DNA of 18,736 nucleotides, taken from the IMG/VR virus record IMGVR_UViG_2609459839_000006; one strand, written 5' to 3'. The notes under the pieces were generated by a model, which was not told the DNA's origin, ran no database searches, and worked only from the letters and a program-made list of their open reading frames with translations. Position numbers and translations under genes: made by a program. This document shows, piece by piece, positions 3,309 through 11,089 of this stretch. Origin of the DNA: a virus. Taxonomy: Duplodnaviria; Heunggongvirae; Uroviricota; Caudoviricetes. Positions within the stretch are counted from its first letter, which is position 1. Each line of letters starts with the position of its first letter.

Positions 3309-3884
3309 CTACGGCAGTGCTGGCCATTCAATATCCTGTGCAGTTGACGTATCAACACGGTTCAGCAATACCCGATACTTTTTCCATGCTTCCAGCAACG
3401 AGATTTCTTCCTCCGTTGCAATTTCCAGATCTGCAGCATCCTGAAGCGGCGCAATATGCTCACTGGCTACCTGCATCAGGTTGTTTTTTGTTTCTTCCGC
3501 CTCCCGGATCCGGAACAGTTTTTCTGCTTCCGTATCCTTCACCCAGGCTGTGCCGTTCCACTTCTGAAACTCCCCTTCCGGCGATAACCAGGTAACATTT
3601 TCCGGTAACGGACCGAGTTCAGAAATAAATAACGCGTCGCCGGAAGCCACGTCATAAACCGTTTTACCCCGATGATCTTCAACGAGATGCCACGATGACT
3701 CATCACTGTTGAAAACAGCCACGAAGCCAGCCGGAATATCTGGCGGTGCAATATCGGTACTGTTTGCTGGCAGACCTGTATGAGGCGGAATATATGCATC
3801 ACCTTCACCAATAAATTCATTAGTTCCGGCCAGCAGATTATAAATTTTTATGGTCCGTGGTTGTTCACTCATTCTGAATGCCAT
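3309..3884 (-). CDS. tfaQ: tail fibre assembly protein
   Basis: 191-aa [20 protein letters not shown]...; recognised Tfa family; ATG at 3882-3884 overlaps stfQ stop (TAATG). Confidence 0.9.
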
Positions 3885-4786
3885 TATGCAAGCCTCACAA
3901 TATAGTTAAATGCGATGTTTTTGACGGTGTTTTCCGCGTTACCAGCAGCGTTAACGGTGATGGTGTGTCCATGTGAACCAATCGCAACGGAGTGCGTATG
4001 AGCACCAATACCGACAGTATGTGCATGCGCGCCTGCGCTTGCAGCAGTGCCGGACAGCGAGTGGGTATGAGCACCATCTGATGATGTCTTCCCTGCATTA
4101 CGAGTCTGGCCACTACCGCTTGTTGTGCTCATAATCCCCGCGCTTAGATTTGAAATCGCGGTATAACCATTAGGGAAAATGCTCGTGTTCGTGCCACCAA
4201 ATGCACCGGAACTCTTGTGTTGGTGCGCACCGGCACTATTTGCGGTCCCGCTAATACTATGGGTATGCGCCCCGGTGTTATTCGTGGATTTGGTTCCGTA
4301 ATCAAACGACGATGTGGTTTTCGTCCCCAAATCCGTACTGGATGCGCTGGCGCTGTGGGTGTGCGATTTAATGCCGTCCTGTTCCTGAGATAATACGGCC
4401 CGACCACTGGCGGGCTTGCCCTTAATCGTCCAGCCACGCATATCAGGGATCACGCCTGACGGATAAGCAACTGCAAGTTTCGGGTATGCAGATTTGTCAA
4501 AAGTCTGCCCCTGCATCAGGGCATAACCAGACGGAACGGTATCTGATGGCCACGGGATTGGTGCACCGACTGGATAAAACTCTGCAGGAGGATGAGCCGA
4601 GGTGTAAAGCTGCGCCCACGGCGACCAGTTTGCGTCGGTCGTATCCCGTCGTGAACGAATAAATGCCGGAGCATGAGCACCGCTTGTACCACTCCAGCCG
4701 ATGAGTAACTCACCTTCGCCAACGGCTGTCATCCCTTTCAGGTGAATGATATTTCCATACGCTGTTGGATATCCGTTGTTATACAC
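3884..4786 (-). CDS. stfQ: side tail fibre protein, C-terminal remnant
   Basis: 300-aa ORF rich in Gly/Ser/Thr/His repeats (GAHTHS.., SAGAHAH..) typical of tail-fibre distal domains; ORF-track start is GTG at 4784-4786, but the same frame is open upstream to about 4867, across the deletion junction near 4838. Confidence 0.8.
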
Positions 4787-4836: not shown

Positions 4837-5082
4837 TTAACCGACACGGGCAGACTTCACCACATTCACCTCACGGATGTAGTCGCTGCCCATCGCATTC
4901 ATGATGGCCCGCTGAAAGGGCAGTGTTTCCCAGCGCCCTTCCTGGTATGCGGATTCTTTCGGGAGATAGTAATTGGCATCCGCCCATTCAACGGCGGTCT
5001 GTGGCTCCGGCCTGAACAGTGAGCGAAGCCCGGCGCGGACAAAATGCCGCAGCCTGTTAACCTGACTGCTCGATATATTCAC
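4837..5082 (-). pseudogene. terminase large subunit (lambda A-like), N-terminal 81-codon fragment
   Basis: [81 protein letters not shown] matches the N-terminus of lambda gpA as I recall it; GTG start at 5080-5082 overlaps nohA 3' end as in lambda; homology stops at codon 81. Confidence 0.85.
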
Positions 5083-5602
5083 TCAGCAACCCCGGTATCA
5101 GTTCATCCAGCGCGGCTGCTTTGTTCATGGCTTTGATGATATCCCGTTTCAGGAAATCAACATGTCGGTTTTCCAGTTCCGGAAAACGCCGCTGCACCGA
5201 CAGGGGGATCCCGTCGAGAATACTGGCAATTTCACCTGCGATCCGCGACAACACGAAAGTACAGAATGCGGTTTCCACCACTTCAGCGGAGTCTCTGGCA
5301 TTCTTCAGTTCCTGTGCGTCGGCCTGCGCACGCGTAAGTCGATGGCGTTCGTACTCAATAGTCCCTGGCTGGAGATCTGCCTCGCTGGCCTGCCGCAGTT
5401 CTTCAACCTCCCGGCGCAGCTTTTCGTTCTCAATTTCAGCATCCCTTTCGGCATACCATTTTATGACGGCGGCAGAGTCATAAAGCACCTCATTACCCTT
5501 GCCACCGCCTCGCAGAACGGGCATTCCCTGTTCCTGCCAGTTCTGAATGGTACGGATACTCGCACCGAAAATGTCAGCCAGCTGCTTTTTGTTGACTTCC
5601 AT
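5057..5602 (-). CDS. nohA: terminase small subunit, lambda Nu1 homolog
   Basis: 181-aa ORF MEVNKKQLADIFGASIRTIQNWQEQGMPVLRGGGKGNEVLYDSAAVIKWYAERD... is near-identical to lambda Nu1 as recalled; ATG at 5600-5602. Confidence 0.95.
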   Translation of the reverse strand: MEVNKKQLADIFGASIRTIQNWQEQGMPVLRGGGKGNEVLYDSAAVIKWYAERDAEIENEKLRREVEELRQASEADLQPGTIEYERHRLTRAQADAQELKNARDSAEVVETAFCTFVLSRIAGEIASILDGIPLSVQRRFPELENRHVDFLKRDIIKAMNKAAALDELIPGLLSEYIEQSG

Positions 5603-5830
5603 TGTTCATTCCACGGCCAAAAACAGAGAAAGGAAACGACAGAGGCCCAAAAGCTCGTTTTCAGCACCTGTCGTTTCCTTTCTTTTTAGGGGGTATTTTA
5701 AATAAAAACATTAAGTTACGACGAAGAAGAACGGAAACGCCTTAAACCGGAAAATTTTCATAAATAGCGAAAACCCGCGAGGTCGCCGCCCCGTAACCTG
5801 TCGGATCACCGGAAAGGACCCGTAAAGTGA
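5603..5830 (-). other. lambda-type cos site (cosB-cosN-cosQ); cosN 12-nt cohesive-end sequence at 5780-5791
   Basis: Reverse complement of 5780-5791 is GGGCGGCGACCT; flanks read GATCCGACAGGTTACG / CGCGGGTTTTCGCTATTTATGAAAATTTTCCGG, matching the lambda termini as recalled. Confidence 0.85.
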
Positions 5831-5990
5831 TAATGATTATCATCTACATATCACAACGTGCGTGGAGGCCATCAAACCACGTCAAATAATCAATTATGAC
5901 GCAGGTATCGTATTAATTGATCTGCATCAACTTAACGTAAAAACAACTTCAGACAATACAAATCAGCGACACTGAATACGGGGCAACCTC

Positions 5991-6224
5991 ATGTCAACGA
6001 AGAACAGAACCCGCAGAACAACAACCCGCAACATCCGCTTTCCTAACCAAATGATTGAACAAATTAACATCGCTCTTGAGCAAAAAGGGTCCGGGAATTT
6101 CTCAGCCTGGGTCATTGAAGCCTGCCGCCGGAGACTGTGCTCAGAAAAAAGAGTTTCTTCTGAAGCAAACAAAGAAAAGAGTGACATTACTGAATTGCTC
6201 AGAAAACAGGTCAGACCAGATTGA
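5991..6224 (+). CDS. ynfO: small basic protein, possible ribbon-helix-helix DNA-binding fold
   Basis: 77-aa ORF MSTKNRTRRTTTRNIRFPNQMIEQINIALEQKGSGNFSAWVIEACRRRL...; ATG at 5991; fold assignment is inference from the sequence pattern. Confidence 0.6.
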   Translation: MSTKNRTRRTTTRNIRFPNQMIEQINIALEQKGSGNFSAWVIEACRRRLCSEKRVSSEANKEKSDITELLRKQVRPD

Positions 6225-6281
6225 AGCAATTTAGATAATCGTGCAGACTACGCCCCCTCATATCACATGGAAGGTTTATCT

Positions 6282-6692
6282 ATGGATCAGGTAGTCATTT
6301 TTAAACAAATATTTGATAAAGTTCGAAACGATTTAAACTATCAATGGTTTTATTCTGAGCTAAAACGTCACAATGTCTCACATTACATTTACTATTTAGC
6401 CACAGAGAATGTTCATATTGTATTAAAAAATGATAATACAGTGTTATTAAAGGGCCTAAAAAACATTGTGTCTGTCAAATTTTCAAAGGATAGGCATCTT
6501 ATAGAAACGACCTCTAATAAGCTGAAATCCAGAGAGATCACATTTCAGGAATACAGAAGAAACCTTGCTAAAGCAGGAGTTTTTCGGTGGGTTACAAATA
6601 TCCACGAACAAAAAAGATATTACTATACCTTTGATAATTCATTACTATTTACTGAAAGCATCCAGAAAACTACACAGATCTTACCACGCTAA
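6282..6692 (+). CDS. ydfO: DUF1398-family prophage protein
   Basis: ORF track 6267-6692; internal ATG at 6282 (MDQVVIF...) has GGAAGG at 6269-6274; TAA at 6690-6692. Confidence 0.75.
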
Positions 6693-6843
6693 ACCATAAC
6701 GTCCGGCTTCTCTCACTCCTGAGCCGGACTGCATTGGTTTAATAAAAACCATCAACAATTGTGATTTAGATATTCGGAACCATTCAAATATAACAAAACC
6801 CCGTAAAAACGAGGTTTATGGATAAATTTTATTATTGAATACA

Positions 6844-7017
6844 TCAGATTAAATTAATCTTGACATCATAGCTTTCAAGACCCGTCATTTTTTCCCGTGC
6901 GGTAAACTGAATACTGGTAACTTCTTTCCCGGTCTTTTTCTTAAGTTCAATAATTTTTTTTGTTATATATTCAGAAATATCTGCTTCTGCTTTTGTTTTT
7001 AAGTTTTCAATATTCAT
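6844..7017 (-). CDS. gnsB: GnsA/GnsB-family small protein
   Basis: Not in ORF track (under 60 aa); hand translation of minus strand gives MNIENLKTKAEADISEYITKKIIELKKKTGKEVTSIQFTAREKMTGLESYDVKINLI (57 aa); AGAGGA upstream of the ATG at 7015-7017. Confidence 0.8.
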   Translation of the reverse strand: MNIENLKTKAEADISEYITKKIIELKKKTGKEVTSIQFTAREKMTGLESYDVKINLI

Positions 7018-7188
7018 CATTTCCTCTTTTAGTCTGTTATGACTTTCCAGTTACACAGTAAGTCGATTATATGGTGCAAACGTGTAAAAGATAAGATGAA
7101 ACATCGCAATAATCAACATACGATAGTCTAAATTTTACACAAACAGACAAAGAGAATTTTCCTGAATTATCAATGCAATAGCATCAAA

Positions 7189-7484: not shown

Positions 7485-7689
7485 TCATTTTCACTTTTTT
7501 AAATCCAACGACAGACGGCTGGCATTTAAGTATTGTGAAATATTATCAAATGTAATCATCATTGATTTACAAAAGATACATTTTGCCCCGAAAGGATTCA
7601 TGTCAGAAACATCAAAAGATGATGTTCTATACTGGGAACCATGACAACACGGGCATCTAAAGTGAATATGGTTTGTAATATTGTCTACC

Positions 7690-7902
7690 TCAAAGCGCCA
7701 CTACATGAACAGCGGCAGGACCTTTAGGTCCGTTCTCAATACCAAATTCAACTTCCTGATTCTCAGTTAATGTTTTGAAATCGTTGCTCTGAATTGCTGA
7801 GAAATGGACAAACACATCTTTGCTGCCATCTTTCGGCGTGATGAAACCAAAACCTTTTTCAGGGTTAAACCATTTCACTAAACCAGTCATTTTGTTAGAC
7901 AT
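7690..7902 (-). CDS. cspI: cold shock protein, CspA family
   Basis: 70-aa [70 protein letters not shown] with RNP1/RNP2 motifs; ATG at 7900-7902. Confidence 0.95.
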
Positions 7903-8264
7903 AATTATTACCTTTTGAAGAAATTAGCCCTTGGGCAGAATGGTCCGAAAAAAAATATCAGAGAGAAAAACCAACAAGGAAATCTCAAGAGGTACAAATA
8001 ATAAAATTATAACAATGACTGCTTCAGATAAATTTGTAACAAACCAGAACACCATTAACGCATGATTAACCACCCATAGCAAGGATTACTTTTGTAAAGA
8101 AAAACACAGCAATGAAAGAATAGCTTTATTTATTAATAAAACGTGTCATTCTGATTAAGACCTTTTATCTTACCCTTAAGATTTCAGGAATTTTGGCTCA
8201 TGGAAGAGTCCTTTTTATTTAAATTTTACATTCCGCGATGTAAATGTTCCGATTTAATATTACC

Positions 8265-10293: not shown

Positions 10294-10573
10294 AGATTGT
10301 GGTGCTTTTTGTGGGAGTCATCCACTTACGCACTTTGTTTTGCCATGCCAGCAGTTAGCTTCTGCTGTAAAACTATTCATGCAGCAAACCTGCACTTCAC
10401 CACAATGGTTAGCATACTTTTCCTGATTAAGATTTTGCCAAATATGCTAGCCATTGTTTCATGTATTGGACCTCCTTACTTTTTATTAAAGAGATCCAAT
10501 ATTCACTACTCTGTCCGTATCTCTACTCAGGCATCAGCCTTCTTCGTTATCGTATACAGACGAGCGATGAATT

Positions 10574-10789
10574 TTAATCAGTAATGATGACATTTGCTGC
10601 TGCAGGACCTTTAGCACCACTCTCTATAGAGAAGGTAACCTTTTGACCTTCAAATAAGGTTCGATAATTATCATTCTGAATCGCAGAAAAATGCACAAAC
10701 ACATCTTTACTACCATCAACAGGAGAAATAAAGCCGAAACCTTTATCAGCGTTAAACCATTTTACTAAACCAGTCATTTTATTTGACAT
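10574..10789 (-). CDS. cspB: cold shock protein, CspA family
   Basis: 71-aa [71 protein letters not shown]; ATG at 10787-10789. Confidence 0.95.
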
Positions 10790-11089
10790 TCTACATTCCT
10801 TAACTTGAGCCTTTCGGCATAAATGGTTTGCATAACAGAAACGACTTCGTACTTAATTGGAGAGACTCAAAGAAGGAATAAGTGAATAACACCTGAAATG
10901 AGAACTGCTTTAGTAAACTACTTCGTATATCGTCTGTTCTTCAAACCGACGCAATCATTAACGCATAGTTGAACATATGAAGCAATGTTTATTTTAGACA
11001 TCCAGCCATCTTCAACCCCATCAAAAAACTATAGCTTTCTTCAGGAACGTGTGTATAGTGCGCCAAGTTATCAGTATTAAGGAATTTTT

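Follow-up and report, generated by a model that had tools for sequence, protein, structure and literature searches.

Two apparently independent accessory genes, ynfO and ydfO, juxtaposed beside cos in a Qin-type lambdoid prophage of Escherichia coli

The genes ynfO and ydfO lie side by side in an 18,736-nucleotide stretch of viral DNA (IMG/VR record IMGVR_UViG_2609459839_000006; in what follows, the window is this whole stretch), which is a Qin-type lambdoid prophage of Escherichia coli with its late operon on the minus strand. Their direct homologues are YlcI and YbcV of the prophage DLP12, lambdap78 of phage lambda and YcgX. YdfO is 79% identical to lambdap78/YbcV and 44–46% to YcgX, while the N-terminal domain of YnfO is ~98% identical to its copies in lambda and DLP12. 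In lambda, the stretch on the side of cos is followed by a 64-codon homologue of ynfO, by lambdap79 on the opposite strand, by lambdap78—the homologue of ydfO—and by bor, the last being on the same strand as the ynfO homologue. The ynfO-like and ydfO-like genes of both lambda and DLP12 are ~650 bp apart, with the opposite-strand gene ybcW/lambdap79 in between, unlike the adjacent ynfO and ydfO of the window; ycgX, for its part, has no DUF3950 neighbour, which also distinguishes it from ydfO. It should be noted that the reference lambda record (NC_001416) holds no feature over the ynfO homologue (48109–48303, complement; within the last 400 bp of the genome), which newer records label as hypothetical or as a member of the YlcI/YnfO family.

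Compared with these relatives, the window retains the right end of lambda with 100% identity over the 199 bp from cosN to the ATG codon of ynfO (5792–5990). An earlier reading of the DNA, referred to below as the original prediction, had regarded the two genes as a module antisense to the late operon, lying in the slot where lambda carries bor. Both open reading frames (ORFs) are present on the plus strand and the flanking genes are on the minus strand. The slot is likewise the same, but its description was incomplete, lambda having both homologues in addition to bor. The ylcI/ybcV pair named there as a parallel is real in DLP12, although split as in lambda. The genes and the packaging site concerned, the latter 200 bp upstream of ynfO, are as follows.

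5991–6224, plus strand: ynfO, coding for a protein of 77 residues (17 K/R versus 9 D/E, net charge of about +8)
6282–6692, plus strand: ydfO, coding for a DUF1398 protein of 136 residues (structure 2HH8)
5057–5602, minus strand: Nu1/nohA, a gene of the late operon
6844–7020, minus strand: gnsB, a gene of the late operon, with ynfN, cspI and rzpQ also on the minus strand
5780–5791, minus strand: cosN, GGGCGGCGACCT, the sole exact match (0.01 expected by chance)

On balance, the locus appears to consist of two independently evolving accessory units that have come to be juxtaposed, i.e. a conserved small regulator gene, probably Arc-like, by cos, and an optional moron cassette. The arrangement is of the ordinary moron type, revealing no new kind of system, and the genes are already known and annotated: RefSeq gives the same two genes the names ynfO and ydfO. 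YnfO—small and basic, as originally described—matches PF13132 (DUF3950; E-value 2.7e-21, 75.6 bits versus a cut-off of 25) and the NCBIfam model YlcI_YnfO_N (NF041551; 36.6 bits versus a cut-off of 30). YdfO matches PF07166 (DUF1398; E-value 1.7e-46, 157.5 bits versus a cut-off of 22) and shares 140 of 141 residues with 2hh8_A, the nuclear magnetic resonance (NMR) structure 2HH8. ynfO and ydfO are both part of the E. coli 'y-ome' and are both represented in lambda by homologues, so that any function found for them would close a gap in our knowledge of two genomes that have been studied very thoroughly.

The independence of the two genes is seen from their distribution, based on 153 phage records, 67 species-level loci (one genome per species) and BLAST counts over 5426 complete E. 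coli genomes. The N-terminal domain of YnfO was found in 153 phage records and YdfO in 43. The Stx/HK97-type phages with HNH-TerS-TerL packaging genes carry the ynfO-like gene alone, between Rz and the HNH gene, and in the phage 2G7b it is followed directly by bor, with no ydfO. Among the species-level loci, ynfO lies upstream of all the YdfO homologues with an identity of 75% or more, whereas all of the ~30 others, at 32–49% identity, lack both a DUF3950 gene within 2.5 kb and any small partner gene upstream. These solitary homologues—ycgX from E. coli and those from Citrobacter, Klebsiella, Kluyvera, Raoultella, Pseudocitrobacter and Salmonella diarizonae—are located among chromosomal genes. 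DNA coding for the YnfO N-terminal domain is present in 4184 of the 5426 complete E. coli genomes, in up to 12 copies, and ydfO-like DNA in 5376 of them; one O157 strain has seven places of the former versus one of the latter. Concerning the co-occurrence check proposed with the original prediction, the genes are thus not obligately paired in either direction, lone ynfO-like genes being found in phages and lone DUF1398 genes in chromosomes. Within the lambda-type phages, the linkage is positional: ynfO is the fixed neighbour of cos, and several different inserts may follow downstream, of which ydfO is one.

The cassette carrying ydfO is delimited by the following elements.

6205–6221, no strand assigned: AACAGGTCAGACCAGAT, including the palindrome GGTCAGACC (6209–6217); the element bounds the ydfO cassette on its 5' side, is a reported PdhR site from systematic evolution of ligands by exponential enrichment (SELEX) and overlaps the last ynfO codons
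6269–6274, plus strand: the Shine-Dalgarno sequence GGAAGG of ydfO, 7 nt before the ATG codon at 6282 and kept in lambda

The homology between Qin and lambda ends near codon 54 of ynfO and resumes exactly at the palindrome, ~70 nt before the ATG codon of ydfO, so that the cassette boundary is common to both. In lambda, the palindromic element is intergenic, while in Qin it gives ynfO its last five codons and the stop codon. It follows that the junction, and not a co-evolution with YdfO, has produced the end of the YnfO tail in Qin. The G+C content is 28–35% for ydfO, ~44% for ynfO and 50–57% for Nu1. Its deviant composition, its presence in 43 versus 153 ynfO-bearing phage records and its orientation against the late operon mark ydfO as a moron, an AT-rich cassette comprising the upstream palindrome, a leader, a Shine-Dalgarno sequence and the ORF. 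Of the lambda morons bor and lom, it shares with bor the slot, the antisense orientation, the AT-rich composition, the variable presence and the dispensability for lytic growth; Bor is, however, a lipoprotein with a known serum-resistance phenotype, whereas YdfO is without a signal peptide. A PdhR SELEX site has been listed for 'ynfO > ydfO' (PMC7660256), and in DLP12 a PdhR site lies upstream of ybcV, the mRNA of which was ten-fold lower in a pdhR mutant (PMC7660256). The length of 136 residues, the DUF1398 assignment and the Shine-Dalgarno sequence originally claimed for ydfO have all been borne out, an alternative reading of 141 residues from 6267 having no Shine-Dalgarno sequence before it; the spacer is 57 nt rather than the 58 bp given then.

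With regard to ynfO, codons 1–50 (5991–6140) form the conserved DUF3950 domain and codons 51–77 a lineage-specific tail. The first 49 residues of YnfO are invariant or nearly so among variants with six unrelated tails, and in the Stx phages the DNA similarity to ynfO starts exactly at the ATG codon; the C-terminal tail depends on what the mosaic junction at each locus provides. Compared with a diverged copy, codons 1–50 exhibit 16 synonymous and four non-synonymous changes, 18 of the 24 nucleotide differences being at third positions. Purifying selection acts on the frame of ynfO over codons 1–50, since an antisense ORF covering it changes more residues (10/43 versus 4/50).

5963–6229, minus strand: antisense ORF of 88 codons, overlapping ynfO and sharing its wobble positions, with no variant interrupting it over the conserved domain

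This ORF was considered as a gene in its own right and rejected as a shadow ORF, evolving faster than ynfO by the same counts. A conserved ORF, subject to purifying selection, is missing from the reference lambda record.

The N-terminal domain of YnfO probably has the ribbon-helix-helix (RHH) fold, judging from its residue pattern and its predicted structure. The AlphaFold2 model of the monomer consists of a basic unstructured arm (residues 1–18) and two helices (19–32 and 34–73), with a predicted local distance difference test score of 68 overall and 82–84 over residues 21–50. It has no strand at residues 1–18, the RHH strand forming only in a dimer. Residues 14–33 of YnfO (NIRFPNQMIEQINIALEQKG) align without gaps, in the same structural register, with residues 11–30 of Arc (NLRWPREVLDLVRKVAEENG) and 8–27 of Mnt, the sequences of which were verified against the entries in the PDB. 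The gapless score gave p-values of 0.0016 versus Arc and 0.014 versus Mnt in shuffling tests, and the hhalign comparison of YnfO with Arc/Mnt gave P 0.042. In this alignment, N14 and R16 of YnfO correspond to N11 and R13 of Arc, and G33 to G30; Arc N11 and R13 contact the bases in the Arc–operator complex. The family shows little or no variation in the segments T12-R13-N14-I15-R16-F17-P18 and G33-S34-G35-N36-F37-S38, YnfO having both the alternating polar/hydrophobic strand pattern and the glycine-containing turn between helices that are expected of an RHH protein. Similarly to YnfO, Arc and Mnt from the phage P22 (PF03869) are small basic phage proteins sharing the N-x-R-x-P strand and the glycine ending helix A, and mnt is, like ynfO, transcribed against the late operon. 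YnfO differs from them in being without a significant family-level match and without an identified operator, its binding to DNA being predicted. A tblastn match of the YnfO N-terminal domain in the Pasteurella phage Pmp7 (3001–3159 of the locus analysed; 40% identity, E-value 2e-5) was set aside as probably a chance one, being antisense to a gene for a 'transcriptional repressor'.

The spacer between cos and ynfO contains candidate sites for two regulators of the host.

5829–5847, no strand assigned: Fur box, differing from the 19-bp consensus at three positions (0.02 expected by chance)
5917–5930, no strand assigned: perfect FNR box TTGATctgcATCAA, the sole exact TTGAT-N4-ATCAA of the window (0.02 expected by chance)
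5952–5957, plus strand: putative –10 hexamer GACAAT, from reading the sequence; the transcription start would be near 5965

The Fur box lies 153 bp upstream of the ATG codon of ynfO and 236 bp upstream of that of nohA. The binding by Fur in a gel shift and its in vivo selection have been credited to nohA, at –233 (PMC2189734). The centre of the FNR box is 67.5 bp upstream of the ynfO ATG codon, the distance being the same in 109 lambda-type loci. Binding of FNR to the site is documented by a chromatin immunoprecipitation (ChIP-chip) peak 'nohA/ydfO' together with an electrophoretic mobility shift assay (PMC1802558), and by ChIP-seq (PMC3688515). With GACAAT as the –10 hexamer, the FNR box would be at –41.5, i.e. 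in the class II geometry for the predicted start at ~5965. We infer that the FNR and Fur sites may drive or modulate the rightward transcription of ynfO from a putative promoter. It is worth mentioning that the Fur and FNR sites listed under nohA/nohB are across cos from nohA and much nearer to the divergent ynfO; they are better candidates for the control of the divergent ynfO/ylcI. Modest hints in favour of such regulation are that ylcI is transcribed in K-12 within the ybcW–ylcI excludon, that ybcV is up under microaerobiosis and that ydfO is induced by an ionic liquid (see below).

As for the way in which the locus might work, a member of the ynfO family is found antisense to the late operon, between the lysis and packaging genes, in many lambdoid phages including lambda, and its basic 50-residue N-terminal domain would most likely fold as a DNA-binding RHH dimer of the Arc/Mnt type. 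Expression would probably be that of a lysogen gene under the control of the host, with the FNR and Fur sites acting on the transcription of ynfO and on read-through into ydfO, and with ydfO additionally under its own PdhR-type site. The latter gene is an optional cargo in about one quarter of the ynfO-carrying phages, and it has relatives that are solitary in the chromosomes of Enterobacteriaceae.

YdfO itself has been produced alone for its NMR structure. No match to PADLOC-DB 2.0 was found at E-values up to 1 for either YnfO or YdfO, and searches of Pfam, NCBIfam and PADLOC placed neither protein in a known toxin or antitoxin family. The DUF1398 family alignment contains no invariant charged residue and no conserved catalytic residue; its conserved positions are L27, Y35, T41, N43, A96, G99, W103 and Y114. 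The knock-down of lambdap78 by CRISPR interference (CRISPRi) resulted in an efficiency of plating of ~1.9, with plating unchanged and the gene non-essential (PMC10695390). A role in binding or in structure is more probable for YdfO than that of a toxin. For the DUF1398 protein, databases give 'head protein' (phrog_413, RefSeq lambda) as well as 'putative envelope protein', neither of which has a visible basis: the gene is antisense to the late operon, without a signal peptide and dispensable by CRISPRi. A rise in resistance to oxidative stress on overexpression of YdfO has also been dismissed, since PMC4077768 cites for it PMC3105296, which reports YfdK, YfdO and YfdS of CPS-53 and never ydfO; the claim is probably a gene-name mix-up with YfdO.

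Several results weigh against the two units being independent, against an RHH fold of YnfO or against a control by FNR. Concerning the fold, the Foldseek search of YnfO against the PDB gave RHH proteins as its top matches (ParD2 with an E-value of 2.7, a TCP domain and Reg576), all with E-values above 1, and that against BFVD gave nothing significant except for its own homologue from a Stx phage. Pfam at E-values up to 10 gave DUF3950 only and no RHH family, and a YnfO profile search of the PDB sequences gave no match. The comparison with Arc was picked post hoc, the motif having already been seen. The RHH assignment is thus not statistically secure, and the N-terminal half of YnfO, likened in the original prediction to RHH regulators or antitoxins, is RHH-like in its AlphaFold2 helices and Arc/Mnt register and not by any statistically secure sequence, profile or fold match. 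No operator was found, either: outside the coding N-terminal domain, not a single 10-mer near the gene is common to the lambda-type and the Stx-type loci, and the repeats near ynfO are short ones only, with no conserved operator candidate among them. With regard to transcription, a consensus scan for promoters gave no sigma-70 site having a –35 hexamer, and a lacZ fusion, made in the nohA direction only, was weak with little effect of FNR (PMC1802558). With regard to independence, ydfO is located downstream of ynfO on the same strand in every lambdoid phage carrying it, so that a functional link limited to phages may stand. A natural in-frame ynfO–ydfO fusion also exists: in most Qin-type loci the genes are in one reading frame with a single TGA and no further stop codon between them (6222–6281), and a change of TGA to TGG yields a fusion protein of 233 residues (P0122), present on six contigs. 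A programmed TGA read-through or a 'Rosetta-stone' fusion was nevertheless rejected, as spacers of 56, 58 and 59 nt occur in variants and most of the P0122-cluster members read are unfused. Finally, ydfO was scored as 'essential only by TraDIS' (transposon-directed insertion-site sequencing) in E. coli K-12, despite being in a dispensable prophage (PMC5821084); a possible source of this score is an AT-rich, H-NS-type insertion bias or the mapping of multi-copy or paralogue reads.

Among the alternatives, the one faring best—possible, yet unlikely—is that the YnfO N-terminal domain serves a phage function tied to its position, e.g. at cos or the terminase genes, or binds a host protein, and is not a transcription factor. 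The gene is always by the packaging genes even though the terminases are unrelated (Nu1/A versus HNH-TerS-TerL), and the domain is nearly invariant with no shared operator DNA nearby and with weak RHH statistics. On the other hand, a gene running against the late transcript is not well positioned to be expressed while packaging takes place, the protein does not vary with the cos sites and terminases, which are different in the two types of phage, and the Arc/Mnt register fits, including both base-contacting residues.

An extension of the favoured juxtaposition, in which the YnfO-like proteins would be an unrecognised Arc/Mnt-type repressor of most lambdoid phages (including the unannotated lambda gene), made in the lysogen from an FNR-activated and Fur-modulated promoter beside cos, is to be regarded as rather improbable. 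A common target would be expected, given how little the DNA-binding domain varies among phages in which its neighbours are unrelated. This target would lie either at some locus of the host or at a phage site that is conserved, for instance a promoter that leads into the terminase genes or into ant. If this were true, prophage behaviour would be coupled to oxygen and iron. As far as the immI region of P22 (mnt/arc/ant) is concerned, the Stx phages YYZ-2008 and BP-4795 carry ant (3712–4281 of each locus analysed) between R and Rz, ~1 kb from the lone ynfO-like gene, whereas lambda and Qin have, unlike P22, no ant gene.

There is still less to be said for a role in defence or superinfection exclusion, with YdfO, alone or together with YnfO, blocking the incoming phages in the lysogen. 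The location in a moron slot antisense to the late operon, by bor and other lysogenic-conversion genes, and the varying presence among related phages would suit such a role; neither protein, however, matches a PADLOC model or has an enzymatic motif, DUF1398 homologues such as ycgX are near-core, chromosomal and outside prophages (cf. the 5376 genomes mentioned above), and the literature searched reports no phenotype. All the further readings taken together have a slight chance. It is even less probable that the genes are decaying remnants without function in a cryptic prophage: Qin is defective and many database variants are truncated or frameshifted, but codons 1–50 of ynfO are under purifying selection, both genes are intact in functional phages, such as lambda and PhiR42_1, and ydfO responds strongly to stress, being induced 12- to 116-fold by ionic liquid.

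The least credible is a type II toxin–antitoxin module with YnfO as an RHH antitoxin that would repress the operon and neutralise the YdfO toxin by its C-terminal tail, suggested by a small basic RHH-like protein whose gene precedes, at the distance of the 57-nt spacer, a larger one on the same strand and by the tail differing between the Qin and lambda arrangements, and contradicted by ynfO-like genes mostly without ydfO and distant DUF1398 genes without an upstream partner, by the ~650 bp and the opposite-strand gene splitting the two in lambda and DLP12, by the lack of any Pfam or PADLOC toxin or antitoxin match and of an invariant catalytic residue, by YdfO having been expressed alone and by the end of the Qin tail coming from the upstream DNA of the ydfO cassette, i.e. 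from a junction. The RelBE-type modules, one of which is found elsewhere in Qin, resemble ynfO–ydfO in that the gene of a small RHH-like protein comes before that of another small protein, but the co-occurrence, tight coupling, family matches and toxicity indicators fail or point the opposite way for ynfO–ydfO. A dedicated two-gene pair is thus unlikely, and the regulator–effector, toxin–antitoxin, exclusion or defence module of the original prediction is not upheld, given the lack of obligate pairing and of PADLOC matches, the lone chromosomal relatives, YdfO made alone, the non-essential lambda homologue and ydfO's own upstream element. The toxin–antitoxin and defence readings can be dropped without experiments.

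Two further elements accompany the locus.

5815–5821, minus strand: cosQ-like heptamer GGGTCCT, from reading the sequence and the same in lambda; we take it to be cosQ
6796–6817, minus strand: weak terminator-like hairpin predicted by a consensus scan, between the convergent ydfO and gnsB

Concerning the right end of lambda, contigs of ~3.5 kb identical to it are present in dozens of assemblies from unrelated taxa, such contigs or their proteins being found under Kitasatospora, Brevibacillus, Pedobacter, Cohnella, Shewanella and 'Staphylococcus aureus'; this looks like contamination by a sequencing-control amplicon. The Rfam scan found no RNA family within 5700–6800. Elsewhere in the window, it indicated leaders of the cspA thermoregulator type at 7663–8048 and 10558–10950 (both on the minus strand), preceding cspI and a second csp gene, respectively, as well as an IS009 RNA element at 3343–3541 (minus strand), close to the tail-fibre genes. 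In E. coli strain 7/2 (NZ_CP023820.1), an IS1 insertion divides the otherwise identical region in two.

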